DNA from: an uncultured Solirubrobacteraceae bacterium
GTDB lineage: Bacteria > Actinomycetota > Thermoleophilia > Solirubrobacterales > Solirubrobacteraceae
NCBI GenBank assembly: GCA_963763695.1
Contig: CAVXPM010000001.1
Coordinates: forward strand, 116,963 to 180,962
DNA: 64,000 bases
Direction: 5' to 3'
Below, piece after piece: positions 9,134 to 40,048 of this stretch. A model generated the notes under the pieces. The model saw nothing but the letters and a program-made list of their open reading frames with translations. It ran no database searches and had not been told where the DNA came from. Position numbers and translations under genes: made by a program. How positions within the stretch are numbered: the stretch's first letter is position 1; every line of letters starts with the position of its first letter.

Positions 9134-9916
9134 ATGGCGCAAACGATCGCGGTCCTCTCGCAGAAGGGGGGCACCGGAAAGACCACCACGGTACGGACGC
9201 TCACAGACGTCCTGCGCCGCTGCGAGCTGCGCACGCTCGCGGTCGATCTCGACCCCCAGGGCAACCTCTCCGACTACTTCGACCTGCCCACCGACGTTCA
9301 GCCAACCGTCTCGGAGATGCTCTCCGGTCGCGCCAAGGCCGCTGAGGCGATTCACGACGACATCATTCCGGCCAACCTGACGCTGGCCGAGGCGGAGCTG
9401 ATGCTCGGCGGCAAGATGGGACGCGAGCTGACACTCAAGCGCGCATTGGCCGAAACGGCCGAGGACTACGACGTGATCCTGATCGACTGCCCGCCGTCGC
9501 TCGGGCTGCTCACGATCAACGCGCTGGTGGCGGCCGATCACGCGCTGATCACCGCCGAGGCACAGTACTTCGCACTCCAGGGCGTGGAGCAGGCGATGGA
9601 GGTCGTGGAGCTGGCACGCGACAGCCTCAACCCGCAGCTCTCGCTGCTGGGGGTGCTGCTGAACCTGGCCGACATGCGGACCGTGCACTCGCGGGAGGCG
9701 CTCGTCTCGCTGCAGGAGCGCTTCGGCGAGGCGGTCTTCGCCACCGCGATCCGCGCTTCGATCGCCTACGCGGAGTCGGCCGAGCGGGCACGCTCGATCC
9801 TCGACTACCGTCCCGATCTCGGCGCCGATTACATCGCCGTGTCAGACGAACTGATGCGACGGCTCCCGGGCTTGGCGGGCGCCCGCAAACGCCTCACCCG
9901 CCTGGCCACGAGCTAG
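9134..9916 (+). CDS. ParA/Soj-family ATPase (no adjacent parB)
   Basis: Deviant Walker A KGGTGKTTT, DLDPQGN, IDCPPSLG motifs. Confidence 0.92.
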   Translation: MAQTIAVLSQKGGTGKTTTVRTLTDVLRRCELRTLAVDLDPQGNLSDYFDLPTDVQPTVSEMLSGRAKAAEAIHDDIIPANLTLAEAELMLGGKMGRELTLKRALAETAEDYDVILIDCPPSLGLLTINALVAADHALITAEAQYFALQGVEQAMEVVELARDSLNPQLSLLGVLLNLADMRTVHSREALVSLQERFGEAVFATAIRASIAYAESAERARSILDYRPDLGADYIAVSDELMRRLPGLAGARKRLTRLATS

Positions 9917-10764: not shown

Positions 10765-11788
10765 CCAGCACCGCTTCCTCGATCGGCCCGCGCTCGGCCA
10801 CGCACTGGATCACCTTGCCGTCGTTGTTGGCGATCGCAGTCTCGGGGTCCTTCAGGCCACGGCCGGTGAGCACGCAGACGACCTGCTCGGCACCGTCCGC
10901 TCCGTACTTGAGCAGGCCGGCCACCGACGCCGCCGAGGCGGGCTCGCAGAAGATCCCTTCGCGCGCGGCGAGCAGCCGGTAGGCGGCAAGGATCTCGGTG
11001 TCGCTGACCGCCCGGATCGACCCGCGTGACTCGGTCGTGGCCGCCATCGCGTCCTCCCAGCGGACGGGGTTGCCGATCCTGATCGCGCTGGCGACCGTTT
11101 CGGGGTGCTCGACGCGATGGCCGAGCACGAGCGGGGCCGCGCCCTCGGCCTGGAACCCGAACAGCCTCGGCGCCGCGCCGACCTCGCGAAAGCCACGCCA
11201 GTAGGAGGTGATGTTGCCGGCGTTGCCGACCGGGATGCAGAGCAGCTCGAGCTCGCCGTCGAGGTCCTCGTGCAGCTCGAACGCAGCCGTCTTCTGCCCT
11301 TCGATGCGGTACTCGTTGACCGAGTTGACGAGCACGATCGGATGCGTGTCGGTCAGCTCGCGCACGAGCGTCAGCGCCTGGTCGAAGTTGCCCGCGAGCG
11401 AGATCACGCGCGCGCCGTGAATCAACGTCTGCGCCATCTTTCCGCGCGCGATCTTGCCCTCGGGCACGATCACGGCACACGTGATTCCGGCGCGCGAGGC
11501 GTAGGCGGCGGCGCTCGCGGCGGTGTTCCCGGTGGAGGCGCAGATCACAGCCTGGGCGCCCTCGCGTACGGCTGCGCTCACAGCGCAGGTCATCCCGCGG
11601 TCCTTGAACGAGCCGGTCGGATTGGCGCCCTCGAGCTTCAGGCGCACACTCGCACCGAGCATCTCCGAGAGCACCGGCGCGCGCAGCAGCGGCGTCGAGC
11701 CCTCCTGCAGGCTCACGATCCGATCTCCCGCGGCGAACGGCAGGCGCTCGCGATAGCGCTCGATCAGCGGCACATGGCTTCTCGTCAT
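10754..11788 (-). CDS. thrC: Threonine synthase
   Basis: NPTGSFKDRG PLP lysine motif, CASTGNT, PVGNAGNIT. Confidence 0.95.
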   Translation of the reverse strand: MTRSHVPLIERYRERLPFAAGDRIVSLQEGSTPLLRAPVLSEMLGASVRLKLEGANPTGSFKDRGMTCAVSAAVREGAQAVICASTGNTAASAAAYASRAGITCAVIVPEGKIARGKMAQTLIHGARVISLAGNFDQALTLVRELTDTHPIVLVNSVNEYRIEGQKTAAFELHEDLDGELELLCIPVGNAGNITSYWRGFREVGAAPRLFGFQAEGAAPLVLGHRVEHPETVASAIRIGNPVRWEDAMAATTESRGSIRAVSDTEILAAYRLLAAREGIFCEPASAASVAGLLKYGADGAEQVVCVLTGRGLKDPETAIANNDGKVIQCVAERGPIEEAVLGDP

Positions 11789-11813: not shown

Positions 11814-13082
11814 TCACACGAGCTCCTCTTCGATCACACGGATGGTGCGCGGCGCCGAGCGCACGAAATCGAACTCGCTCACCAGCTCCACCGCGTGGCG
11901 CATGCTCGACTCGAGCACCGGATGGGTGACCATCACCAGGCGGGCGTGCTCACCCAGGCCGCGTTGCACAACGGACTTGATCGAGACGTCATGATCGCCC
12001 AGCACCCTGGTCACCGAGGCGAGCACCCCCGGATGGTCGGCCACGTCGAGGTGCAGGTAGAAGGCGCTTTCGACGTCCTCGACGAGCGGCAGCGCGAGCG
12101 GGGGCGCAGGCGGACGGGCGCCACCGGTCATCACGCTGACGACATCGCCCAGCACGGCGCTTGCGGTCTGCAGGCCGCCGGCTCCGGGACCCGACAGCGT
12201 GATCTCCGTGATCGTCTCGGACTCGACCGTCACGGCGTTGAACGACCCTGAGATGCTCGCCAGCGGATGGGCGGAGTAGAGGAACGTGGGATGCACCCGC
12301 ACCGAAAGTCCGCCCAGCCGGCGCTCGGCGGTGCCGATCAGCTTCAGCCCGAGGCCCAGCTCGCGCGCGTACTGCAGGTCGTCGAGGTGCAGGTGCTCGA
12401 TGCCCTCGTAGCGGACGTCATCGAGATGCACCGGGCTACCGAAGGCCAGGCGCGCGAGGATCGCCATCTTCGCGGCTGCATCGCGGCCGCTGACGTCGTC
12501 GCTCGGGTCGGCCTCGGCGTAGCCCTTGCGCTGGGCCTCGCGCAGCGCCTCGGCGTAGCTCGAGCCGCCGGCCATCTCGGTGAGGATGAAGTTGGTGGTG
12601 CCGTTGACGATCCCGTGGATGCGCTCGATCGGCGTGGCCGAGAGCGACTCCTCGAGCACGCGCACAACCGGCACGGTGCCCGCCACCGCGGCCTCGAAGC
12701 GCAGCCTGACGTCATGCGCCCGGGCGGTCTCATACAGCTCCTCGCCGTGCTGGGAGAGCAGTTGCTTGTTGGCGCTGACGACGTGCTTGCCGGCGCGCAT
12801 CGCCCTGAGCAGGTACTCGCGGGCGGGCTCGATCCCGCCCATCACCTCGACCACGAGGTCGGCATCGGCGACGATCTCCTCGAAGCTACCGCGCGAGCGC
12901 GTGAGGACGCCGCTGATCACCGGACGGCGGCCGTTGAAGCGCTCGATCTCGCCCGCCCTCTCGGCGAGCAGCTCGGCAAAGGCCGAGCCGACGGTGCCGT
13001 GGCCGAGCAGGCCCACCTTGAACGCGGGCGCCGAGGCGCGGCGATCGTCGGCCACAGCGGAGACCGGGCGCTCAGCGGACAT
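11814..13082 (-). CDS. hom: Homoserine dehydrogenase with C-terminal ACT domain
   Basis: GLLGHGTVG, VVSANK, GIVNGTTNFIL, GYAEADPSDDVSG, GPGAG motifs. Confidence 0.95.
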   Translation of the reverse strand: MSAERPVSAVADDRRASAPAFKVGLLGHGTVGSAFAELLAERAGEIERFNGRRPVISGVLTRSRGSFEEIVADADLVVEVMGGIEPAREYLLRAMRAGKHVVSANKQLLSQHGEELYETARAHDVRLRFEAAVAGTVPVVRVLEESLSATPIERIHGIVNGTTNFILTEMAGGSSYAEALREAQRKGYAEADPSDDVSGRDAAAKMAILARLAFGSPVHLDDVRYEGIEHLHLDDLQYARELGLGLKLIGTAERRLGGLSVRVHPTFLYSAHPLASISGSFNAVTVESETITEITLSGPGAGGLQTASAVLGDVVSVMTGGARPPAPPLALPLVEDVESAFYLHLDVADHPGVLASVTRVLGDHDVSIKSVVQRGLGEHARLVMVTHPVLESSMRHAVELVSEFDFVRSAPRTIRVIEEELV

Positions 13083-14355
13083 CGCGCGCGGCCAGATCCT
13101 CGAAGCTCTCGCGCCTCACCACCACGCGCGCGTCACCGTCCTTGCAGAAGATCACCGGCGGCCGGGGCACGCCGTTGTAATTGTTCGCCATCGCGTGGCC
13201 ATAGGCGCCGGTGGCGGCGGTCACGATCACATCGCCGGGGGCCGGGTCGTCCAACAGCGCCTCGCGCACGATCACATCGCCGGACTCGCAGTGCTTGCCC
13301 GCCAGCACGCAGCTGGTGGAGCCGCCGAAGCGGTCGGCGACATGCGCCTCGTAGGCCGATCCGTAGAGCATCGGGCGCATGTTGTCGGACATGCCGCCGT
13401 CGACGGCCACCCAGCGCGAGACGTTCTGCTTGACGCTCTCGACTGTGTAGAGGGTGACCGCGGCGTTGGCGCACAGCGAGCGGCCGGGCTCGATCATCAG
13501 CCGCCGCTCGCCCATGCCGTTGGCCTGCGCGGCTGCGACGAGCGCGCCGACATACTCCTCGACGGACGGGGGCGGCGGCTGCTCGGGGGTGTAGCGCACG
13601 CCCAGCCCGCCGCCGAGATCCCAGACCGGGAAATCGCCGAGCTTGGCGAGCTCCTCGGCCTCGTGCCGGAACGGCTCGAGGCTCAGAAGCTGCGAGCCGA
13701 TGTGCGCGTGCAGCCCCTGCAGCGAGAGCAGATCGGCGTCGCGCACGCGCGCGATCGCCTCGGCGGCGTCGTCCATCGCGAAACCGAACTTGGAGTCGGC
13801 CTGGCCGGTGGAGATCTTCTCGTGCGTGTCGCCCCTCACGTTCGGCGTGACCCGCACCAACACCGGCTGAGCCACGCGGTCGACGAGCAGGCCCTCACCC
13901 GCCAGGCGCTCCAGACGTTCGATCTCGTCGAAGTTGTCGAGCACGATCAGCCCGACCCGGTGGCACAGCGCCATCCGCAGCTCGGCCTGCGACTTGGCGT
14001 TTCCGTGCAGCACGATCCGCTCGGGCGCAAAGCCTGCGCGCAGCGCGAGATGGAGCTCGCCGCCGGAGGCCACGTCGCACCACAGGCCCTCGCGCGCGAA
14101 CAGCTCGAGCACGGCCGTGCAGGGGAAGGCCTTGGATGCGAAGACGACCTGGAAGTCCTCGTGGCCGCAGTCGCGTCCGGCCTGCACGAAGGCACGGGCG
14201 CGGACGCGCAGGTCCTCCTCGGCGACCACGTAGGCCGGCGTTCCGAACTCGGCGGCCAGCTCGACCGTGTCGCAGCCGCCGACCTCCAGGCGCCCGCGCT
14301 CGTTCAGCCGGCTGGCGAGCGGGAAGGCTTCGGAGAGACTGGTACCGGTGACCAT
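13072..14355 (-). CDS. lysA: Diaminopimelate decarboxylase
   Basis: FASKAF, HGNAKS, SKFG, HAHIGSQ, EPGRS, GKHCESGD motifs. ATG at 14355. Confidence 0.95.
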   Translation of the reverse strand: MVTGTSLSEAFPLASRLNERGRLEVGGCDTVELAAEFGTPAYVVAEEDLRVRARAFVQAGRDCGHEDFQVVFASKAFPCTAVLELFAREGLWCDVASGGELHLALRAGFAPERIVLHGNAKSQAELRMALCHRVGLIVLDNFDEIERLERLAGEGLLVDRVAQPVLVRVTPNVRGDTHEKISTGQADSKFGFAMDDAAEAIARVRDADLLSLQGLHAHIGSQLLSLEPFRHEAEELAKLGDFPVWDLGGGLGVRYTPEQPPPPSVEEYVGALVAAAQANGMGERRLMIEPGRSLCANAAVTLYTVESVKQNVSRWVAVDGGMSDNMRPMLYGSAYEAHVADRFGGSTSCVLAGKHCESGDVIVREALLDDPAPGDVIVTAATGAYGHAMANNYNGVPRPPVIFCKDGDARVVVRRESFEDLAARDVR

Positions 14356-14404
14356 GACCGGGATTATCGCTTGCGGGCGAGGGGCGCCGTCGGATGGGCC
14401 CGTT

Positions 14405-15178
14405 TCACCCGACCGCCGGGCGCAGTGCGCCGGCACCGCCACGACGGACCATCGCGGCCAGCCACAGCAGACCGACGGCGAGCAGCGCGAGACTCTCGAG
14501 CTGCGGCGCCGTGAGGCCGACCGCGACCTCCTTGTTGCGGCGGATAAACTCCACCAGGAAGCGCTCCAGGCCGCTGCCGAGGAGATACAGCGCGAACACC
14601 ACGCCGGGGCGCACGCGGTCGCGCAGCTTCCACAGCGCGTAGGCCAGCAGGCACATGCTGACGGTCTCATAGATCGGCGTGGGCTGTACGCGCACGCCGG
14701 GCGGCGTGGGCAGCGTGCCGTGCGGATAGCCCATCGCCCACGGCAGGCTCGAGCGGATCCCGTAGTCGCCGTCCCCGGACACCTGGCAGCCGATCCGCCC
14801 GATCGCATAGCCGAGTGCGAGCGCGGTGGCGCACATGTCGAAGGCCCACAGTTCGAGCACCTGGCGCCAGCGCATCCAGGCGATCACGCCGAGCGCGCCG
14901 CCGATCGCGCCGCCGTACCAGACCAGTCCCGAGCCCGAGAAGATGCTTCCGAGGAGGTCGTGCCTGACCTGATCGTAGTTCTGGAGGAGGTAGTAGCCGC
15001 GCGCACCGATGACGCCGCCGAGCAGCGCCGCGAAGGTGATCTCATAGGACCAGTCGATCGGCCGGTCGAGCTCGCGCAGCCTGCGCGCCACGAGCCCCCC
15101 GCACGCCAGGAAGCCCAGTGCGAACACTGCCCCGAAGGTCTTGACCGAGATGCCGAGCAGTTCGATTTCGGGCTTCAT
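14405..15178 (-). CDS. lgt: Prolipoprotein diacylglyceryl transferase
   Basis: GGVIGARGYY, GLVWYGG, GRIGCQVSGDG, QPTPIYE, RFLVEFIR motifs. ATG at 15178. Confidence 0.93.
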   Translation of the reverse strand: MKPEIELLGISVKTFGAVFALGFLACGGLVARRLRELDRPIDWSYEITFAALLGGVIGARGYYLLQNYDQVRHDLLGSIFSGSGLVWYGGAIGGALGVIAWMRWRQVLELWAFDMCATALALGYAIGRIGCQVSGDGDYGIRSSLPWAMGYPHGTLPTPPGVRVQPTPIYETVSMCLLAYALWKLRDRVRPGVVFALYLLGSGLERFLVEFIRRNKEVAVGLTAPQLESLALLAVGLLWLAAMVRRGGAGALRPAVG

Positions 15179-15250
15179 GGGGTGAGCGCGCTCGGCATCG
15201 ACTCGCATGACTTTACGGCAGCGATATCTGCTTCTGCGACAATCATGCGT

Positions 15251-16165
15251 ATGGCCAAGGGGCGCACGAGCTTCGGCAAAGACACGGGTCTGCAGGCGCG
15301 AATGCTGTTCACGATGTTCCTGCTGGGACTCGTGTACGTGGTGTTCGTCGGCGTGTTGTTCGCGGTGGGTGCCGGCGCCGGGCTGATCGTGGTCGTGGCG
15401 CTGGTCCTGCTCCTCTTCCAGCTGTTCGCCTCGGACAAGCTGGCGATGGCCACGATGGGCGTCAAAGAGGTCTCGCCGGCCGAAGAGCCGGAGCTGCACG
15501 GGATCGTCGAGCGCCTGTGCGTGCAGGCCGACCTGCCCAAGCCACGCGTGTGCGTGGCCGAGACCCCAATGCCGAACGCGTTTGCGATGGGCCGCTCGCA
15601 GAAGTCCACGACCGTGTGCGCCACGCGCGGCATCCTCAACCTGCTGAATCCCGCCGAGCTCGAAGGCGTGATGGCGCACGAGCTCACGCATGTGATCAAC
15701 CGCGACGTGATGGTGATGACGCTGGCGAGCTTCCTCGCGACGCTCGCCTCGCTGATCATCCAGTTTTCCTTCTTCTTCGGCGGCGGCTTCGGCGGCGGCT
15801 ATGGGCGCAGCAACGAAGAGGAGGACGACATCATGATCGTGCTGCTCGTCTCAGTGCTCGTCTACGCGATCTCCTTCCTGCTGCTGCGCGCGCTCTCGCG
15901 ATACCGCGAGTTCGCGGCCGATCGCGGCTCGGCCGTGCTCACGGGCCGCCCGAGCGCACTCGCCTCGGCCCTCTTGAAGATCAGCGGCACGATCGAGCAG
16001 GTTCCGAGCCAAGATCTGCGCAAGGCGGAAGGGATGAGCGCCTTCTTCATCATCCCCGCGCGCACGAAGAAGTCGCTGATGAACATCTTTGCCGACCACC
16101 CGCCACTCGAGCAGCGACTGGCCGCGCTCGAGCGGCTCGAGGCTCAGCTTCAGAGCGCCGCCTGA
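15251..16165 (+). CDS. htpX: Zinc metalloprotease HtpX (M48)
   Basis: PNAFAMG, ELEGVMAHELTH (HExxH), SRYREFAADR, DHPPLEQR. Confidence 0.93.
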   Translation: MAKGRTSFGKDTGLQARMLFTMFLLGLVYVVFVGVLFAVGAGAGLIVVVALVLLLFQLFASDKLAMATMGVKEVSPAEEPELHGIVERLCVQADLPKPRVCVAETPMPNAFAMGRSQKSTTVCATRGILNLLNPAELEGVMAHELTHVINRDVMVMTLASFLATLASLIIQFSFFFGGGFGGGYGRSNEEEDDIMIVLLVSVLVYAISFLLLRALSRYREFAADRGSAVLTGRPSALASALLKISGTIEQVPSQDLRKAEGMSAFFIIPARTKKSLMNIFADHPPLEQRLAALERLEAQLQSAA

Positions 16166-16167
16166 GG

Positions 16168-16761
16168 ATGGGCATCAAGGACATGCTCCTTGGCCGTCAC
16201 GAGGTCAAGGGTCCCGCGCCCGATCGCCTGTTCGCGATCACCACCGCCTACATCACGCTGCAGTCCGAGCACCAGATCGAACCCGCGGGGAGCGCAGCGA
16301 TCGTCTTCCAGGCGCTCGCCACGAGCGAGTTCGAAGCGACGCTGCGCGAAATGGAGGAGGTGGTCACGGCCACCGGCGGAGAGAGCGCCACGAAGGTCGC
16401 CACGGAGGACGACAGCTATGGCTATCGCTGGATGGTCCTGCGGAGCCCGGTGGGAGCGCCCAGCGTGGAAGACCTCGCGGTTGGGATCAACGCGGTCTCG
16501 GGCTCGATCGAGACGGCCGGACACGGGGAGCGCCTGCTGTGCGCGGTGTTCGCCTTCGAGGACGCGCGGAAGCGGCGGATCTACTTCATCTACAACTACA
16601 AGCGCGGTTCCTGGTACCCGTTCGTGCCCGACGCGGGCTCTGGGCGCCAGGAGCAGCGCGCGACCGAGCGCGAGCTGCAGCTGAAGGCCCAGATCGGCTC
16701 TGAGCTGCCGATCGAGCCCGAACTGTCGCGCTGGTTCCCTCTGTGGGGAATCCCGATCTGA
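16168..16761 (+). CDS. PspA-associated protein, PspAB-like
   Basis: Begins 3 nt after htpX; PDRLFAITTA...DSYGYRW...YNYKRGSWYPFVP...RELQL pattern; pspA neighbourhood. Confidence 0.7.
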   Translation: MGIKDMLLGRHEVKGPAPDRLFAITTAYITLQSEHQIEPAGSAAIVFQALATSEFEATLREMEEVVTATGGESATKVATEDDSYGYRWMVLRSPVGAPSVEDLAVGINAVSGSIETAGHGERLLCAVFAFEDARKRRIYFIYNYKRGSWYPFVPDAGSGRQEQRATERELQLKAQIGSELPIEPELSRWFPLWGIPI

Positions 16762-30981: not shown

Positions 30982-31803
30982 TCAGGCGATGCCGGTGCCG
31001 GTGGCGCTGGAGACGGCAATGGCGGCGAACACCGCGACCGCGCACAGCGCCAGACAGGCCAGGAACGCGAGTACGGGCACCCCGCGCTTGCCGGCCTCGC
31101 GGAACGCCAGTCCGGCCAGGAAGCCGCCGATCAGACCGGCCACGTGCGCGCCCACGGAGATGTTCGCAAAGGTGAAGCTGAAGATCAGGTTGATCAGGAT
31201 CAGGCCGCCGATGCCGGACTCCATCACGCTGACTCGTCGCGCGCGCAGCTCGACCACAGCAGCGCCCATCAGCCCGAACACCGCGCCGGAGGCTCCGAGA
31301 CTGGGCTGCCCGGTGGCGAACAGCGCGCCAAAGGAGCCGACCAGCAGGGCGGTGAAGTAGATCGCGGCGAAGCGGGCAGAGCCGATCGAGCGCTCGAGCA
31401 TCATCCCGAGCAGGTAGAGCAGGTACATGTTGAAGCCGATGTGGATGAAGTTCTCGTGCAGGAAGCCGCTGGTGATAAGCCGCCAGTACTGGTGCCCTTC
31501 GGCGATCGGTCCCCGCTGCAGGAAGCCTTCGTCGACGACCTTGCCGTAGATGCCCGTACCCGTCAGCGTGAATTGGCCCTGCTCGGTGAGGAAGGCGATC
31601 ACGTTGATGACGATCAGCGCGTAGGTGACGCGCGGGATCGAGGCCGTCTCACGCAGGCGCACCACTTTGGTGCGCTGCTGGGCGCACTCCGGGCAGCGCA
31701 TGCCGACGGGCGTGGTGGTCATGCAGTCGGGACATATCGGGCGCCCGCAGTTGGAGCAGGAGACCCCCGTCTCGCGCGAGGGGTGGCGGTAGCAGGTGGC
31801 CAT
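30982..31803 (-). CDS. Rhomboid-family intramembrane serine protease with N-terminal B-box-like zinc finger
   Basis: CYRHP...CSNCGRPICPDC; WRLITSGFLH, GASGAVFG, AHVAGLIGG. ATG at 31803. Confidence 0.92.
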   Translation of the reverse strand: MATCYRHPSRETGVSCSNCGRPICPDCMTTTPVGMRCPECAQQRTKVVRLRETASIPRVTYALIVINVIAFLTEQGQFTLTGTGIYGKVVDEGFLQRGPIAEGHQYWRLITSGFLHENFIHIGFNMYLLYLLGMMLERSIGSARFAAIYFTALLVGSFGALFATGQPSLGASGAVFGLMGAAVVELRARRVSVMESGIGGLILINLIFSFTFANISVGAHVAGLIGGFLAGLAFREAGKRGVPVLAFLACLALCAVAVFAAIAVSSATGTGIA

Positions 31804-31879
31804 CGAGGCAGAGAGCGTATCTCGGCGGAGGCGACCCACCGCCGGGCGCTGCGCGCCCCATGCGCGCCGTGCCTGGTCC

Positions 31880-32251
31880 TCAGCGCTCGCCGAGGAGCCT
31901 GCGGGTCTCGCGCCCGATCTCGCGCAGGGCACGCTCGGCCGTCTCGCGCACGCCCTCGGCGGTCTCTCGCACACCGGCCAGATCCGGACCGCGGACGGCT
32001 GTGCGCCGGCGGGCGCGCAGCAGCACGAGCGCCGCGCCGGCTGCGCTGCCGCCGACCACGGCGGCTGCGGGGCGAACCCAGTTGCGCGGGTCGCGCATCG
32101 CAGAGAGCTCCCATGCCTCGAGCTCGTCGGCGGCCATCGCGGTGATGCTCGTCAGCGTGCTCTCCAGTCGCACCGCCAGATCGGCCGGCGGCTCGATCGG
32201 CGTGAGCGCTTCGCGCAGCAGCCCCTCGAAGCTCTGTGCCGCCTCACTCAT
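31880..32251 (-). CDS. Small single-TM protein, putative anti-sigma factor
   Basis: ATG at 32251 overlaps the ECF sigma stop; one hydrophobic helix (AAAVVGGSAAGAALVLL) followed by RARRR. Confidence 0.55.
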   Translation of the reverse strand: MSEAAQSFEGLLREALTPIEPPADLAVRLESTLTSITAMAADELEAWELSAMRDPRNWVRPAAAVVGGSAAGAALVLLRARRRTAVRGPDLAGVRETAEGVRETAERALREIGRETRRLLGER

Positions 32252-32896: not shown

Positions 32897-33688
32897 TCAA
32901 GCGGCACGCGAGACCTCGCGCGGCTCGCTCGCATGGGCGTCCTGCGCGCGCGGGCTCTTTGCGCCGCCGAGCCACTCCCATTGCAGGCGCACGCATGCCC
33001 AGATGCGTTCGGTGACGCCCATCGCGAGCGCGGGCGAGGAGCGCTTGACGGTCGGGAAGAGCAGCGGTCGTCCAGCGCGGATGCGCACCTTGCGGGGCCG
33101 GATGCGCCAGCCCCTGCGCGCGTCTTCGCTGCCGATGACCGCGATCGGAGCGACCGGTGCGCCGGTTTCGAGCGCCAGGCGCCCGACGCCACGGCGTGGG
33201 TCTCCCAGCGGGCCGGGACGGGTGCGGGTGCCCTCGGGGAACACCACCACGCAGTCGCCGCGTTCGAGGATCGTGCGCGCCGTCGCCATCGCATCCCGGT
33301 CGCCCGCGCCGCGGTCCACCGGGAAGGCGCCCAGCGCGTTGAGCAGCACCGCCTGCCAGCGCTTCTCGAACAGCTCGCGCTTGGCCATGTAGTAGACGGG
33401 ACGGCGCACCATCGTGCCGATCACGAACGGGTCGAGGAAGCTGCGGTGGTTGGACGCCAACAGCAGCGGGCCCGTGCGAGGGAGGTGCTCGCGCCCGATC
33501 CGCTGCATCCGGAAGTAGATCAGGAAGAACGGCACCAGCAGCGTGCGCATCACCCGGTAGAAGATCGGATTGACGCCCCTGTTGAGCGAGCGCTCGCGAA
33601 AGCTGCTCAGATCCGCTCCGGGCACATCGGCCGAAACCTCGCCCCGTTCGGGGATCTGCTCTTGGGGACAGGCCTTCATGCCTTTCAT
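32897..33688 (-). CDS. plsC: Lysophospholipid acyltransferase (PlsC family)
   Basis: SNHRSFLD (HX4D), MAKREL, GAFPVDR, FPEGTR motifs. Confidence 0.9.
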   Translation of the reverse strand: MKGMKACPQEQIPERGEVSADVPGADLSSFRERSLNRGVNPIFYRVMRTLLVPFFLIYFRMQRIGREHLPRTGPLLLASNHRSFLDPFVIGTMVRRPVYYMAKRELFEKRWQAVLLNALGAFPVDRGAGDRDAMATARTILERGDCVVVFPEGTRTRPGPLGDPRRGVGRLALETGAPVAPIAVIGSEDARRGWRIRPRKVRIRAGRPLLFPTVKRSSPALAMGVTERIWACVRLQWEWLGGAKSPRAQDAHASEPREVSRAA

Positions 33689-33736: not shown

Positions 33737-33809
33737 GCCGGAGTAGCTCAGCTGGTAGAGCACCTGTCTTGTAAACAGGAGGTCAGGGGTTCGAGACCCC
33801 TCTCCGGCT
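33737..33809 (+). tRNA. tRNA-Thr (TGT), CCA not encoded
   Basis: Acceptor GCCGGAG/CTCCGGC, D-arm AGCTCAGCTGGTAGAGC, anticodon stem CCTGT/ACAGG with loop CT-TGT-AA, T-loop GGTTCGAGACC. Confidence 0.97.
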
Positions 33810-34525
33810 CTCGCAGAATGCCAGCAACTCGCATCGCGAAGCCTCTAAGCACGTAGAAGGCGCGCACAGCGCTCGCCCCGCCGAACGAACCTGCCGCGAG
33901 CAGCCCGGCTCGAACATCGGAGTTCCTTGGGGAGTTTACAAATCCTCGAACTACTCGTGACGAATGCCACTAGGAGTCCGGCGTCGCATCGGCCAGCCGA
34001 AGGCATGCTGGACGAGCTTCTCTTCGGTTGTGATGCGCCTTCGTAAGCTCGTTCACGATCTCTGCGGCTGTCGAGAGGAACTCTGCCGCTGCTGGCTGCT
34101 GGATTCGATCGCGAGTTCCCTCATCGTCCTACGCGTAGGCCTGCGAAGGAGCGGTGCGCCTCGCTTGTCGGGTGCGAGGTCTAAGTCTTGCGTCTTGCCT
34201 TAGAGCGTGTCGAAGGCGCATTTCCGCGCTGACCACGGGCGGCTCCCGTCGCCCGGATTGGTGCCCTCTAGCTCCGCCGTAAGACCAGACTTCTGCGACC
34301 GTTGACGAGTTTGGCCGAGTTCGATCTTTTGCAGCTCCACGTGCCGTGGCGCGACGCAGCTGGCGTGTTGTGGCGAGTCGAGGCAGCTGCGAGAGGATTG
34401 CGGCATATCCTTCACTTAGTCTCTGCGGCGTTCATTTATGCGTTTTCGCTGAAGACGTGAGCCCAGGGGCCACCACCCCTGTAGATGCCGTACCGACCTA
34501 TCGAGCAGATAACTTTGTCGATCGT

Positions 34526-36853
34526 ATGCCCCGACGGCGAAGAACACGTGCGGAGAGCCGCTCGCGCTACTACATCCGGATCGAGGCGCAAAAGCGCGGA
34601 TGGAACATCGCCCATGTGAGTCGCGGCGGTGATGTCCTTGAGGAGAACGAGATAGTCGCGCACTTCCCCGACATCGGCTTGGGACTCACGAAGCCCGATT
34701 TCCTGGTCTGTCTTGGAGGGGAGCCCGCAATCGTCGTAGAGGCCAAGAATGAGGCAGGCAAGCTTCAGCAGGCCATTGACGAGGCTCTTCAATACGCTGA
34801 CGAGATCAACGCCGCAGGGAAGCACCGCATTCGCGTCGCAGTTGGTGCAGCTGGGGAGGAGGACGCCGGCTTCGTTGTAGCCGTGCGCTTTCTCTCAGCC
34901 GACGGCTGGACTCCGCTCCGCTCGCATAGACAAGAGCTCACGGCTGTCCCAACGAGGCGCGAGACCGAGCTTGCACTGGCCGCCAGCGACGGAACGACGA
35001 CGGTGTCGGTGCCGGACGAAAGCGAGTTCGTTGACGCGGCGGTCGAGCTCAGTCGGATCCTCAGGAGCGCAAAGGTCGAGGCTCCGCTCAGACCCAAGGT
35101 CATCGGCGCCATCGTGATGGCTATGTACGAAGGCGACATCGACGTCACCGCTGACCAAGCCCTGGATTCCGTCAACGACTTGGCAGAGAAAGGTATACGT
35201 AGCTCCCAGGATCTCTCAGACTCGGCGAAGGAGCTACTGATTGATGCCCTAACTCTCACGACGGCTGACTTTGATCGCTTGGCCCCTTCGATCAGGCGCA
35301 TCGTGACCATCCTGCGCCGCCTCAATGTGCGATCAGTGCTACAGACCGATACCGATTTTCTTGGCATGTTCTATGAGGCTTTCCTGCGGTACGGCTACGA
35401 CAACAATGCGCTCGGCATCGTCTTCACTCCCAGACACATAACACGATTCTGTGTCGAGCTACTAGGGGCAGAGCCCACGGATCGGGTGATTGACGTCGCC
35501 TCAGGAACAGGCGGCTTTCTAGTTGCTGCGTTCGATCGGATGCTAGCCGAGGCCAGGGGTCCGGCATCGATACAAAAGGTCAAGGAATCGATCTTTGGAA
35601 TCGAGATCAACCCGACCGTCTGGGCGCTCTCGATGCTCAACATGTTTTTCCGCGGAGACGGAAAGGGCAGCATGCAGCGTGGGGACGCCTTTGACCCGCA
35701 AAAGCGCGCCGCCCACAAGGGTCGCTTCACTCGCGCCTTTTTGAACCCACCATTTTCGCAAGACGGGGAACCAGAGACAGACTTCCTCGATGCGTCACTG
35801 GACGCGCTCGAGCCTGAGGGGCGCCTGGCGGCGGTGGTCAAAGCCGGCGTGTTCGCCGACGGTCAACACCGCGCGTGGCGGGAAGCATTCTTGTCCAGGC
35901 ACCGTCTCCTAGGAGTCGTCAGCCTGCCAGAGGACCTGTTTTATCCTACGGCAGCCCCGACATCGATCCTGCTTGCGGAGGCCCATATTCCGCACGGGCA
36001 AGTTGCAAGTGCGTTTATGGCTCGGGTGTGGAATGACGGCTTTGAGAAAATGAAGACGCGACGAGTAGAGCGTGGCGACTCACAGTTGCCGACCGTTGCA
36101 CAGGCGTTCCACGACTTTTCCGCGGGAGAACCTGTTACGTCGGATTTCGCAACAGTGATCCCCGCCTCAGCGCTTGCAGACGGGGCTGAGTGGAGCCCCC
36201 AGCAATACCTCCCACAGCCCGAACCGGAGACCGAGGAGCTCGCGGCAACCCAACGACTGGCGCTACGGAGTGTCTACCAGGCAGTGGCGCAGTTTCCCGA
36301 GCTTGCTGACGTCGCGTTGGAAAACTTTTCAGACGCATGGCAGGATCTTCCAGATCTTCCGGTTGGTCACAACGGTCCGGTGGATAACTTCTTTGTTGTG
36401 AACAATGGAAAGAGCAGCGGAGAGAAGAATTACTCGACCGGGGGGGCACCGTATATCTCGAGCGGGGACTCAGCAAACAGCATCATCCGTCTTGTTGCCG
36501 GCCCTGACGACGAGCTCTTTCCAGAGGGTGGCATTACCGTAACGGCCTTCGGAACGGCGTCGCTCCAGCCGTGGCCCTTCCTCGGACGAGGAAACGGTGG
36601 TAGCGCTGTACGCGTACTTCACCCTCGCTACAACATGTCACTCCGGGAGCTTCTGTGGTTCATCGCTCAGATAAATCTCCAACGCTGGCGGTTCTTTTAC
36701 GCGCGCATGTCTATAAAGAGCAGGTTGGAGCGGCTAGTAGTCGAAGCGCCAACAGAGCGGCTGCCAGACGGAGATCAGCAGATCAATGATGGTATCGCGA
36801 TGTTTCGTGAGCGGCTTGACGAGCTCAGCGACAGTGGCTCGCTAGTAGGTTAG
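34526..36853 (+). CDS. Single-polypeptide restriction-modification enzyme (PD-(D/E)xK nuclease + N6-adenine MTase + one TRD), Type IIG/IIB-like
   Basis: KPDFLV...VVEAK...ALQYA; motif I VIDVASGTGGFL; motif IV NPPF; C-terminal HsdS-like TRD (FFVVNNGKS...PYISSG). ATG at 34526 preferred. Confidence 0.85.
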   Translation: MPRRRRTRAESRSRYYIRIEAQKRGWNIAHVSRGGDVLEENEIVAHFPDIGLGLTKPDFLVCLGGEPAIVVEAKNEAGKLQQAIDEALQYADEINAAGKHRIRVAVGAAGEEDAGFVVAVRFLSADGWTPLRSHRQELTAVPTRRETELALAASDGTTTVSVPDESEFVDAAVELSRILRSAKVEAPLRPKVIGAIVMAMYEGDIDVTADQALDSVNDLAEKGIRSSQDLSDSAKELLIDALTLTTADFDRLAPSIRRIVTILRRLNVRSVLQTDTDFLGMFYEAFLRYGYDNNALGIVFTPRHITRFCVELLGAEPTDRVIDVASGTGGFLVAAFDRMLAEARGPASIQKVKESIFGIEINPTVWALSMLNMFFRGDGKGSMQRGDAFDPQKRAAHKGRFTRAFLNPPFSQDGEPETDFLDASLDALEPEGRLAAVVKAGVFADGQHRAWREAFLSRHRLLGVVSLPEDLFYPTAAPTSILLAEAHIPHGQVASAFMARVWNDGFEKMKTRRVERGDSQLPTVAQAFHDFSAGEPVTSDFATVIPASALADGAEWSPQQYLPQPEPETEELAATQRLALRSVYQAVAQFPELADVALENFSDAWQDLPDLPVGHNGPVDNFFVVNNGKSSGEKNYSTGGAPYISSGDSANSIIRLVAGPDDELFPEGGITVTAFGTASLQPWPFLGRGNGGSAVRVLHPRYNMSLRELLWFIAQINLQRWRFFYARMSIKSRLERLVVEAPTERLPDGDQQINDGIAMFRERLDELSDSGSLVG

Positions 36854-36895
36854 ACTAGGCCACGCCGTGAGACGGGTGCCCTGAGATCGGGCCAC

Positions 36896-36926
36896 GAGCC
36901 GAAGACCGGTCTCGAACTGACCTCTC
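36896..36926 (-). repeat. Degenerate inverted copy of the tRNA-Thr 3' half (att-like)
   Basis: Minus strand GAGGTCA---GTTCGAGACCGGTCTTCGGCTC versus tRNA 33779-33810 GAGGTCAGGGGTTCGAGACCCCTCTCCGGCTC: 26 of 29 aligned positions identical, one 3-nt gap. Confidence 0.7.
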
Positions 36927-37130
36927 GACTCCAGCAAAGCATGCGTCGCCGGGCAAAACGAGGCGGCTGGCCCAGCTCCCTCGGGCTCCCCTGTCATCCA
37001 TCGACCTTCGCGCTCTGCCTGAAGGGCGACGTTTTGGAAAGTCGTGAACCGGCCAACCGCTCGCTCGACGCTAGAGCGCCCCGCTCGTCTGGTCAAATGG
37101 CGCAAGCGGACCTGCACCGATCGAGTGCCT

Positions 37131-37268
37131 TCAGGCGTGCCCAACCTCGATCCCGAGCGCTCGCCGCAGCGATTCGCGCACGAACAGCCGATAGGCGACG
37201 TCGCTGAGCGCCACAGCCGCGATCACGCGCCGCGCGATCCTCCCGATATCGATCCCCGATTCCCCCAT
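37131..37268 (-). CDS. 45-aa small protein
   Basis: MGESGIDIGRIARRVIAAVALSDVAYRLFVRESLRRALGIEVGHA*, preceded by AAGGAGG; below the ORF-track cutoff. Confidence 0.6.
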   Translation of the reverse strand: MGESGIDIGRIARRVIAAVALSDVAYRLFVRESLRRALGIEVGHA

Positions 37269-37551
37269 CTCGTTCCTCCTTGAACCCTCGATGCGCACCC
37301 TCGATGGCTCCCCTAAGCCATCTGCGCACCCCGAACGCTAGGGAACAGCGGCTCGCCAGTCAACTCGAGCAGGAGTGCCTGCAGAGGCTCCCGCGGCTCT
37401 GTGGCGCACGCGAGGCCGGCGCGCGGTTCGTCCGTTTCTCTGCGGCCCCTTTCGTCCACTTTGCATGACGACGATCACGCCGCCTGATGCGCTGGCGATA
37501 ACTCACTGGGGCGGATATCCATCGCGACGTCTGAGAGTGGAGAATCCTGAG

Positions 37552-38175
37552 TTGCATCTACGCAAACCCTCACCGGCCACAGCAATCGCGGTCCTGGCGC
37601 TGTTCGTGGCGCTCGGAGGTAGCGCTGTGGCAGCCCAGCGCTACCTGATCACGAGCACGCGGCAGATCAAGCCGAGCGTGCTCGCCGTCCTGCACGGGGC
37701 GAGGGGCACCACGGGCGCGCAGGGACCTGGCGGACCGCAGGGTATCGCCGGCCCGCAGGGCGCGGCGGGTGCGCAGGGCCCGCAGGGCGCACAGGGCGCG
37801 CGCGGAGAAGCGGGCCCCACGAACCTCAGCTCGATCACGATCATCCGCGCTCCCGACATCAAAGTGCTGCCCGGCAAAGAAGGCACATCGGTCGCCACCT
37901 GCCCGGCGGGGATGCTCGTGGTCAGCGGCGGCGGCTACACGGGCTTCGCCACCAACAACGGCAGCGAAATGAGCGAAGACCACCAGAGCTGGATCGTCTA
38001 TGTTGACAACCTCGCGGGCATCGAAACCAACCTCGAAGCGATCGCATACTGCGCCACCGCCGGCCAGGCGATCACAGTGAGCGCTCCAGCTGTAGCACAC
38101 GCGCGCGCTGTCGTGGAAGCCCAGCGTCTTGCCGCGCGGCTCACCGGCGAACGCGAAGCACTGCAGCACCACTAG
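37552..38175 (+). CDS. Secreted collagen-like (Gly-X-Y) protein
   Basis: Signal peptide [22 protein letters not shown], about 14 Gly-X-Y triplets, Cys-containing C-terminal domain (ATCPAG...VSGGG...YC). Confidence 0.8.
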
Positions 38176-38206
38176 CCCGGGCGCTCGCCGCAACGCCGCG
38201 AGGCAC

Positions 38207-40048
38207 CTAGCGCACGTACATCGCCTCGATCGCGTCGGTGTACTTCTCGCCGATCGGCTTGCGCTTGAGCTTCATCGTCGGCGTCAGCTCATCGCCGCCG
38301 GGCAGCCAGTCGCCGGCCACGATCGAAAAGCGCTTGACCTGTTCGACGCGGGCCAGCTTGGCGTTGGCCACCTCGACGCCCTTCTGCACCTCTGCGCGTA
38401 CGCGCTCGTCGCCGGCCAGCGACTCCAGCGAGGTCTCCTCGATGCCCTGCTGGCTCGCCCAGGCGGGCGCGAAGTCGGCGTCGAGAACGATCAGCGCCGT
38501 GTTGTAGGGACGCATGTCGCCGATACAGCACGCCTGGCCGATCAGCGGCGAGGCGGTCTTGACGGCGGCCTCGATGTTCGACGGCGACATGTTCTTGCCA
38601 CCCGCGCTGATTATCAGCTCCTTCTTGCGATCCACGATCGTGAGGTAGCCGTCGTCGTCGAAGGCACCGAGGTCGCCCGTGCGCAGCCAGCCATCCTCGG
38701 TGAACGCCTCGCTGGTCATCTCCGGCAGGTTGCGATAGCCGAGCATCACCACTTCCGATTTTACGAGCACCTCGCCGTCGGCATCGAGCTTGATCTGAAC
38801 ACCGGGTGCGGGCGGTCCCACGGTGCCGATCTTGATCTTGCCCGGAGGGTTGACGCTGCCGGCGCCGCAGGTCTCGCTCATCCCCCACAGCTCGGCCAGC
38901 GGCAGGCCGATCGCATGGAAGAACTCGAGCACCTCCACCGGTGTCGGCGCGGCGCCCACGTTGATCGCCTCGACCTGGTCGAGTCCGAGCATCGTCCTGA
39001 CTCCCGCGAAGATCTCCGCGTCGGCCTTGGCGACTTGCTCGGCGAGCTCGACGGGCACCGGTTCGCCGGCCTGCTCCAGGCGCACCTTGCGAACGCTCGC
39101 GGCGATTGCGGCCTGCATCGCCTGCCCCTGCTCCTCGGGCTGGGAGGCGATCATCGTCTCCAGGCCCGCCTTCAGCTTCTCCCAGATGCGCGGTACGGCG
39201 AAGAACCAGCTGGGGCGCACTTCGGGCAGGTAGGAGAGCACCTGGCGCGGGTCCTCGCAGCAGGTGATCTGTAGCCCGTAGACGATCGGCAGGTAGTGGT
39301 GCGCGTTGCGCTCGGCGACGTGGGCGCTCGGCAGCCAGGAGATCACGCGACCGTCGCGCGGGAACTGGATCAGGACGTCGAGGCCCTCGACCGCTGCGAG
39401 CAGGTTGCGGTGGATCAGCTGCACCCCCTTGGGTGGCCCGGTCGTTCCCGAGGTGTAGATCAGCGTCAGAACGTCTCCGGACTCGATCTGGGCGACCGAT
39501 GACTCCACGTCGAAGTCGGGGTTGGAGCCCTCGACCTCGGAAAGCGCGAGAACCCCGTCGGGAGCCTCGCCGTCGATCACGATCACGCTGGCGAGTCCCG
39601 GCAGCTCCTCGCGGGCCTCGAGGACCGAGGCAAGATACTGCTGCTCGCAGATGAGCACGCTCGCCTCGGCGTCCCCCACGAGGTAGCGGATCTGCTCGGG
39701 TGTGTAGGTGTTGTAGATCGAAAAGGGGGTGGCGCCGAGCATCATCGCGGCGAGATCGCAGAGGTGAAACTCGGGGCGGTTTGAGAGCATCAGCGCGACC
39801 GTTTCGCCTCGCTTCACGCCGAGCTTGGCGAGGCCGCCGGCGAGCGCGTCCACGCGTTGGCGCAACTCTCCCCAGGTGATGGTGAAGGCGTCTCCCTTGG
39901 TGCGGATCGCGACCTCGCCGTCGCGGTCGGCCGCGGTTATGCGAAACGCCTCGGCGAGCGTCGAGGCGCGGGTCGCCGCACCCGCCGAGCTGGCCTTCAC
40001 GTCACTCACTGCCGCGTCCATAGCAAGCTCCTCCCACTCACGATTCAC
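38207..40048 (-). CDS. Long-chain fatty acid-CoA ligase (AMP-dependent synthetase)
   Basis: YTSGTTGPPKG, ELWGMSET, WLRTGDLG, DRKKELII, GGKNMSP, ELTPTMKLKR. Confidence 0.93.
   Translation of the reverse strand: MNREWEELAMDAAVSDVKASSAGAATRASTLAEAFRITAADRDGEVAIRTKGDAFTITWGELRQRVDALAGGLAKLGVKRGETVALMLSNRPEFHLCDLAAMMLGATPFSIYNTYTPEQIRYLVGDAEASVLICEQQYLASVLEAREELPGLASVIVIDGEAPDGVLALSEVEGSNPDFDVESSVAQIESGDVLTLIYTSGTTGPPKGVQLIHRNLLAAVEGLDVLIQFPRDGRVISWLPSAHVAERNAHHYLPIVYGLQITCCEDPRQVLSYLPEVRPSWFFAVPRIWEKLKAGLETMIASQPEEQGQAMQAAIAASVRKVRLEQAGEPVPVELAEQVAKADAEIFAGVRTMLGLDQVEAINVGAAPTPVEVLEFFHAIGLPLAELWGMSETCGAGSVNPPGKIKIGTVGPPAPGVQIKLDADGEVLVKSEVVMLGYRNLPEMTSEAFTEDGWLRTGDLGAFDDDGYLTIVDRKKELIISAGGKNMSPSNIEAAVKTASPLIGQACCIGDMRPYNTALIVLDADFAPAWASQQGIEETSLESLAGDERVRAEVQKGVEVANAKLARVEQVKRFSIVAGDWLPGGDELTPTMKLKRKPIGEKYTDAIEAMYVR

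Follow-up and report, generated by a model that had tools for sequence, protein, structure and literature searches.

A 64,000-nucleotide (nt) stretch of DNA from an uncultured Solirubrobacteraceae bacterium (contig CAVXPM010000001.1, positions 116,963 to 180,962; hereafter the window) carries a tRNA-Thr gene that is directly followed by a small, low-GC cassette with a single restriction-modification (RM) gene. Shortly after the end of this gene lies a 31-nt fragment that resembles the 3′ half of the tRNA in inverted orientation. Our best explanation, which we hold with about even confidence, is that the fragment is a dead, inverted scar of an attachment (att) type site of tRNA-Thr, left in a hypervariable integration hot spot and brought into its present orientation by a past inversion of the cassette or by a reverse insertion. 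The features on which this explanation builds are the following.

33737-33810, plus strand: intact tRNA-Thr gene (anticodon UGU), found by ARAGORN and by Rfam RF00005 with 72.4 bits; left border of the island and integration target
33777-33809, plus strand: att-type core, i.e. variable loop, T arm and acceptor 3′ strand (tRNA positions 41-73), present as a direct repeat in relatives
36896-36926, minus strand: probable inverted, decayed copy of tRNA-Thr positions 42-74, matching at 26 of 29 aligned positions with a 3-nt gap
36903-36912, no strand: perfect 10-bp palindrome AGACCGGTCT within the fragment, from direct reading of the sequence

The inverted fragment and the question of chance

tRNA-Thr(UGU) is the single tRNA that ARAGORN counts in the window. 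In reverse complement, the segment 36896-36926 is GAGGTCA, a 3-nt gap and GTTCGAGACCGGTCTTCGGCTC, and tRNA positions 42-74 read GAGGTCAGGGGTTCGAGACCCCTCTCCGGCTC. Our alignment thus reproduced the inverted match and the palindrome described in the original prediction, which had been made from the letters of the window. The alignment stops precisely at the last base of the tRNA, and the same fragment was recovered independently as an inverted repeat in a repeat search. Between the stop codon of the RM gene (36851-36853) and the fragment there are 42 nt. Within the fragment, three of the five bases of the T-stem 5′ strand are deleted and three further bases differ. A CC-to-GG change had been proposed to have created the palindrome. 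Some relatives have tRNA-Thr alleles with a natural CCGGT T-stem strand, e.g. in the loci L062 and L054, and this change need therefore not be decay that gave rise to a palindrome. An independent Logan contig (ERR11523670, 4501 nt) corresponds to window positions 33780-38280 with one mismatch, which shows that the arrangement did not arise from misassembly.

The resemblance could in principle be accidental, with a GC-rich 31-mer happening to look like a T arm and an acceptor strand. The shuffling check suggested in the original prediction gave a divided answer. When the full tRNA was compared to the whole window on both strands, 12% of 60 dinucleotide shuffles held a match at least equal to that of the fragment, with a score of 20 or more. 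Against the 400 nt around the GC boundary the full tRNA gave P = 0.003. For the 34-nt core (tRNA 41-74), which was defined in advance, none of 1500 shuffles of the 3.3-kb island reached 20 on either strand; the maximum was 18.5, corresponding to P < 0.001 at the level of the island. Besides the window-wide figure, chance is favoured by gapped chance matches with scores of 19-19.5 in two of the relatives' loci (L002, L038), by the tRNA 5′ half, which has no counterpart beside the fragment (P = 0.58), and by the practice of the island finder Islander to count inverted fragments as noise (PMC4383910).

However, the shape of the match argues against an accident. Its extent (tRNA 42-74) coincides with that of the direct att-type repeats of relatives, and among the 62 chance hits scoring 17 or more in shuffled sequence not one extended from position 39-45 to 73 or beyond. 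Its end coincides with the exact 3′ end of the tRNA, and it is located at most 60 nt from the end of a strain-specific cassette. In addition, the fragment has both clade-specific bases (in GAGGTCA and TTCGAGA) of the window's tRNA. This allele is shared with only 12 of 106 tRNA-Thr genes of relatives, and the remaining ones have GGGGTCA...TTCGAGT or other forms. Since the island-level score, the att-type extent and the clade-specific bases come together, chance is unlikely, and the fragment, as judged from its sequence, is probably derived from the tRNA.

Other identities of the fragment were considered and rejected. An Rfam search with the fragment gives no tRNA match, and the predicted fold of the region is nothing unusual (z = 0.05). 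As no terminator-like site was found either, and the palindrome is not a terminator-like hairpin, a terminator or structured RNA was dismissed. A complete but decayed inverted tRNA pseudogene was dismissed because the 5′ half is missing next to the fragment. A composite pseudogene, made of the fragment and the end of the cassette that near-identical strains carry at this place, reached P = 0.07 only.

Cassette limits and the tRNA-Thr hot spot

The limits of the cassette follow from a comparison with near-identical strains.

33810-36955, no strand: strain-specific low-GC cassette of 3146 nt, in place of which near-identical strains have an unrelated segment of 2933 nt
36956-37125, no strand: 170-nt segment common to near-identical strains and missing in distant relatives, from X3/X4 contig matches and BLAST

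The GC content drops from ~0.70 to 0.58-0.62 between 33800 and 37000; for the cassette it is 0.59-0.66 compared to 0.69-0.70 in the flanks. Two public sequencing runs from other studies (X3 and X4) contain a near-identical strain with 0-3 differences per kb in the flanks. In their contigs position 33809 is joined to 36956 via 2933 nt of other sequence, which shows no similarity of 80% or more to the cassette of the window. These junctions define 33810-36955 as the exchangeable unit, with the fragment ending 29 nt inside its right end. In another run (X2) the depth is 7-25x in the flanks and about 2x in the RM gene, indicating that both cassette forms coexist there.

Only the first and last 30 nt of the alternative cassette were read, from loose contig ends; it starts with TGGTCGAAACGGCCTGCAGCGAGGGGCCCG and ends with GGCCGATCGCGGGATCTCGCTGAACACCTG. 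The final 30 nt (GGCCGATCGCGGGATCTCGCTGAACACCTG) weakly resemble the inverted core at tRNA positions 40-72 (score 10.5, P ~0.02), a similarity to which we give little weight. An exact 26-mer scan of the metagenome collection returned no match to this sister cassette, and a second scan found nothing closer than relatives at 85% identity. Its first 30-mer has no match in the fetched relatives' loci or in viral contigs, and the tRNA core likewise has none among the viral contigs.

To the right of the cassette, the segment shared by the near-identical strains (36956-37125) was probably left behind by an earlier insertion, and BLAST alignments with distant relatives do not start again before 37125-37133. 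Depending on the comparison, the fragment is located between 29 nt (sister strains) and about 200 nt (distant relatives) inside the island boundary. The proposal that tRNA-Thr and its inverted copy bracket the islet is hence approximately right at the strain level, but the cassette ends at 36955/36956, 29 nt past the fragment, and distant homology is found only from ~37125. The proposal that the islet was horizontally acquired directly 3′ of tRNA-Thr agrees with our data. The cassette is foreign, with its low GC content of 0.59-0.61, a GC content at third codon positions (GC3) of 0.67 in the RM gene vs 0.89 in a host gene, and its absence from relatives. Relatives without the islet do not have the fragment either, which goes against one of the two outcomes that the original prediction had named as refuting it.

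The comparison set comprised 160 loci of relatives (L numbers), and the flanking proteins place the window in the Solirubrobacteraceae (Thermoleophilia). The order of genes is conserved: a rhomboid protease, an acyltransferase (minus strand), tRNA-Thr (plus strand), a variable insert, a gene of 45 amino acids (aa; minus strand), a collagen-like protein, an AMP-binding enzyme (minus strand) and an FAD oxidoreductase. Two of these genes flank the island directly.

32897-33688, minus strand: left-flank acyltransferase (PlsC-like; Pfam PF01553, E 1.7e-28), 49 nt upstream of the tRNA and syntenic with tRNA-Thr in 160 relatives
37131-37268, minus strand: right-flank 45-aa gene, convergent with the tRNA; tblastn matches in L001-L004 and L046, and called in the Logan contig

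The distance from the end of the tRNA to the 45-aa gene differs widely, with 30 nt in L046, 94 nt in L004, 1226, 1285 and 1643 nt in L001-L003 and 3324 nt in the window. No insert is present in L046, and the 94 nt of L004 consist of a 43-nt spacer and a displaced tRNA 3′ half that directly adjoins the 45-aa gene. Sequences right after the tRNA fall into 60 unrelated groups among 94 relatives. The original prediction took it as known that integration into tRNA genes leaves direct repeats of the tRNA 3′ end, and in relatives this is so without exception at the same tRNA, with direct copies of the 3′ segment in at least nine of them. These copies comprise tRNA positions 41/42-73 in L022, L044, L076 (two copies) and L036, positions 39-73 in L004 and positions 32-74 in L018, L074, L005 and L165. 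No convincing inverted copy was found in about 100 relatives' loci; the candidates in L038, L126 and L129 (score 19) are gappy, at chance level, and were rejected.

The inserts carry various genes, including a gene for an FkbM-type methyltransferase (L003) and an AAA ATPase (L005). The 1.3-kb insert of L002 (14074-15352; here and below, coordinates of relatives are given in window orientation) encodes an XRE-type helix-turn-helix protein followed by a Fic-domain protein (HPFTNGNGR) and looks like a toxin-antitoxin type pair. In L018 a 2.7-kb island (13604-16431) is bounded by tRNA-Thr on one side and by a direct copy of positions 32-74 on the other. The truncated C-terminus of a tyrosine integrase (HSLRRTFA...GH...Y) follows right after the tRNA, and the cargo is a glycine-rich secreted protein. 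An intact tyrosine-integrase motif adjoins tRNA-Thr also in L037. Taken together, the 3′ side of tRNA-Thr(UGU) is a heavily used integration hot spot in the family, and its contents are mostly remnants without an integrase.

Some of the loci show further rearrangements of the tRNA itself. The resident tRNA-Thr of L005 is split at the anticodon loop into halves 1.85 kb apart, each of them 100% identical to the tRNA of the window, and the inserted element brings its own complete variant tRNA-Thr (12663-12695, 14328-14401, 14549-14590). L004 has a variant tRNA (12382-12455), the 43-nt spacer mentioned above and then the displaced resident 3′ half (12498-12532). The inserted element appears to replace the disrupted tRNA gene with a full gene rather than regenerating it. 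A unit of ~101 nt, composed of a 68-nt G-rich palindromic spacer and the last 33 nt of the tRNA, follows the tRNA once in L022 (~11405-11505) and L044 (~11409-11510) and twice in tandem in L076 (~11515-11717). It could be a miniature att-bearing repeat or what several rounds of integration and excision have left. In L078 the whole tRNA-Thr together with ~45 nt upstream is inverted in situ (9285-9357 in the original coordinates of the locus; 11361-11433 in window orientation), and its flanks are collinear with the close relative L052.

Two neighbours of the island in the window are worth recording. The gene of the collagen-like protein with Gly-X-Y repeats (37465-38175, plus strand) adjoins the island, and near-identical strains differ in it by 9-nt deletions, i.e. 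one triplet repeat, at two places around 37767 and 37783. The rhomboid protease (30982-31974, minus strand) has an N-terminal match to a B-box-type zinc finger that remains below the Pfam cut-off.

Origin of the inverted orientation

In relatives, elements with a tyrosine integrase duplicate the 3′ part of this tRNA, from the variable loop through the T arm to the acceptor 3′ strand, as an att repeat, and the fragment would be a dead relic of the same part. Its orientation would then stem from a past rearrangement. If 33811-36955 were flipped, the tRNA would be followed by a 29-nt spacer and then by the core as a direct copy; after another 42 nt the RM gene would come, now on the other strand. 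The common layout of relatives, in which the tRNA is followed by a short spacer and the core repeat, would thereby be restored, and inversion of the cassette is for this reason the most economical account. This layout occurs in L050, L036, L004, L022, L044 and L076, with spacers from 13 to 68 nt (13, 26, 43, 68). Alternatively, a piece already bearing the scar may have been inserted in reverse. The in-situ inversion of the tRNA in L078 counts as a precedent for small inversions at this locus.

We infer that the relic no longer serves as a recombination partner, because its T-stem 5′ strand is partly deleted, no recombinase gene is nearby and only a single orientation is seen. In agreement with the original prediction that no integrase remains in the window, no motif of a tyrosine or serine recombinase was detected in the six frames of the 64 kb. 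This was a motif-level test, and the motif pattern does detect the integrases of L018 and L037. The 715-nt left region of the cassette showed no integrase remnant in Pfam, NCBIfam and PADLOC searches, in a tblastn search of the window with the integrase remnant of L018 or at the level of motifs. The neighbours of the cassette in the window are conserved genes of the housekeeping type. The window, the Logan contig and the contigs of run X1 (3-5x depth, no strand-changing joints) all have the same orientation, although contigs drop rare variants.

Several observations, together with the window-wide shuffles described above, weigh against the inverted scar. No flipped copy of the cassette and no relative with the un-inverted arrangement was found. 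Searches for a decayed direct right-hand att site (attR) before 36956 or 37125 gave scores at the shuffle level. The cassette has no terminal direct or inverted repeats (P ~0.2), so there are no repeats at the breakpoints of the proposed inversion. The sister strains lack the fragment at 80% likeness or more, whereas an old resident scar would be expected to be common to them; it may therefore have come in with the cassette. Finally, Islander-type methods place fragments of tRNA genes (tDNA) in the opposite orientation in their false-positive class (PMC4383910). This orientation filter was all that a literature search on inverted tRNA fragments at islands turned up (PMC4383910).

Arrival with the cassette is an explanation of its own, doubtful in our view. 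Here the fragment would be a decayed piece of the donor's attP region, i.e. the att site of the incoming element, or of a tRNA-Thr copy of its own, captured in the present orientation, and a local inversion would be unnecessary. This would fit with the position of the fragment within the strain-specific cassette and with its absence from sister strains and all other relatives. In the islands of L004 and L005 a complete variant tRNA-Thr is indeed present near one end, separated from the displaced 3′ half by 43 to 147 nt, and the alleles of L062 and L054 have the CCGGT T-stem strand as in the fragment. On the other hand, the fragment has both bases that are specific to the tRNA allele of the window, so that import would need a donor from the same clade. 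The cassette contains no other genes of an element, and RM homologues elsewhere share neither flanking DNA nor an adjacent tRNA-like piece. An RM gene that travels with the same 3′ flank was specifically considered and rejected, since seven loci of the closest homologues are alike in the coding region only and have no tRNA-like piece.

A templated inverted insertion is very unlikely. A polymerase switching templates during break repair would have copied the tRNA 3′ end in reverse at the far junction, in an error-prone manner or with later decay. The template is located exactly at the left junction and the copy at most 60 nt from the right one, and the lack of att-type direct repeats and of an integrase would be explained. 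But the copy is located 29 nt inside the junction and not at it, and ~10% divergence together with an indel is more than would be expected of a recent event confined to one strain. The proposal is also speculative, being based on general knowledge of template-switch repair.

The original prediction had included a cassette that is invertible by a recombinase among its options, and the evidence speaks against it. In such an active system the T arm and the inverted copy would be the working sites of a recombinase encoded elsewhere. The inverted pair near both ends of the cassette, the unrelated cassettes at identical end points in near-identical strains, the weak similarity of the last 30 nt of the sister cassette to the inverted core and the inverted tRNA gene of L078 could all be read in its favour. 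Yet the 64 kb contain no recombinase motif, and the deleted T-stem 5′ strand is half of the presumed core-binding site, with three more bases different. The boundary of the cassette is located 29 nt past the fragment instead of within it, no other repeats are present at the ends, and a single orientation is seen. Since the RM gene takes its own 715-nt upstream region along, no effect of a flip on expression would be evident. An active invertible cassette is therefore an unlikely origin, the least likely of those proposed, and we consider it highly improbable. Equally slim is the chance of a cassette-exchange system, a tRNA-anchored analogue of an integron or a shufflon, in which the T arm and the inverted core-like site would be the two sites at which a recombinase encoded elsewhere swaps or flips single-gene defence cassettes. 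The fixed end points in the sister strains, their core-like sequence and the L078 inversion would then be products of one activity.

The restriction-modification cargo and comparison with known systems

The RM gene is the only recognisable gene of the cassette.

34526-36853, plus strand: single-chain RM gene, Type IIG-like, 775 aa (Pfam N6_Mtase 6e-30; PADLOC REase_MTase_IIG 2e-33)
33811-34525, no strand: left end of the cassette without a recognisable gene, 715 nt, with open reading frames that have no Pfam, NCBIfam or PADLOC matches

The start of the RM gene at 34526 was set by the gene call of the collection and by the onset of homology with relatives. Its translation has an HsdM-like core of a gamma-class N6-adenine methyltransferase with the motifs VASGTGGF and NPPF. 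The best matches in the PDB are HsdM and related methyltransferases and cover the methyltransferase core only, with no close solved structure; similarly, the REase_MTase_IIG models of PADLOC cover residues 258-514 only. The N-terminal region has a PD-(D/E)xK-like motif (PDFLV-x12-VVEAK). It has no Pfam match itself, and homologues at 58-63% identity score for PF04313 HSDR_N. Some homologues score for PF01420 Methylase_S in the C-terminal part, where the specificity region of the protein studied here is below the Pfam threshold. No separate hsdR or hsdS gene is present in the cassette. The enzyme would methylate host DNA and cut incoming unmodified DNA. The labels RM gene and defence islet, given in the original prediction, stand as predictions from sequence features.

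Homologues of the RM protein (58-72% identity) are found in many phyla and in unrelated contexts, namely in a conjugative element, beside an IS1595 transposase or alone. Their presence in very distant phyla indicates wide horizontal spread. Source names in this ~770-aa family include Bacillus subtilis, Larkinella terrae, Thiolapillus and Rhodospirillales. The homologue in the conjugative element (L081) lies beside genes for a relaxase, a coupling protein and a single-stranded DNA-binding protein. In the 715 nt to the left and 102 nt to the right of the RM gene we detected no recognisable gene, repeat or relative (168 loci and the window). These flanks are single-copy in the window, with no similar DNA in the 168 relatives' loci, as opposed to a repeated element or a miniature inverted-repeat transposable element.

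The cassette shares several properties with tRNA-integrated islands, as collected by Islander/TIGER, in which a tyrosine integrase acts and attP is in the T-stem region. It has an intact tRNA as its border, low-GC foreign DNA from 33810/33811 onwards and a segment that is missing in relatives, which themselves have direct repeats of the canonical kind and remains of integrases at this tRNA. Among the attP sublocations in Islander, the segment from the T arm to the 3′ end is the most frequent one, with 1836 of 3919 islands (PMC4383910). In contrast to such islands, the displaced fragment here has decayed, is in inverted orientation and stops 29 to 200 nt short of the boundary, neither an integrase nor a direct attR is present, and the orientation and integrase filters of Islander would reject the locus (PMC4383910). 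In fragment orientation and in integrase presence, both defining tests, the cassette departs from a canonical tDNA island.

Strain-variable RM and defence islands at hot spots offer another likeness. As in these, a hypervariable slot flanked by conserved core genes is filled with one RM gene, with an unrelated cassette between identical end points in near-identical strains and with a Fic-type toxin pair, methyltransferases or ATPases in other relatives. The island described here differs in its very small size (one gene), its lack of a mobility gene, its uncultured soil actinobacterial lineage and a defence function that is predicted. The RM protein resembles Type IIG/Type IIC single-chain enzymes in its PD-(D/E)xK-like motif, its HsdM-like core containing NPPF and its C-terminal part, in which some homologues score for Methylase_S; unlike them, its predicted nuclease and specificity domains are below the Pfam thresholds and its best PDB matches are limited to the methyltransferase core. 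With invertible segments such as the Hin/Gin/Fim switches and hsdS shufflons, the locus has in common a candidate pair of inverted repeats near both ends of an RM-bearing segment. Here, however, the repeats are imperfect with an indel, no recombinase is adjacent, no alternative coding or promoter arrangement arises and no second orientation is seen.

The finding is mostly ordinary. If the inverted att scar is the true explanation, the locus represents a further case of a small defence islet at a tRNA hot spot, here in a little-studied family of soil actinobacteria, and its value is mainly descriptive. Its importance would rise only if the inverted site were a working partner in cassette exchange or inversion, which the evidence makes unlikely. 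Arguably more interesting than the scar is that near-identical strains differ by replacement of the whole cassette between identical end points. As for the scar itself, it would mean that the marks of integration can persist in the "wrong" orientation, and the case suggests that some of the fragments discarded by island finders reflect real history.

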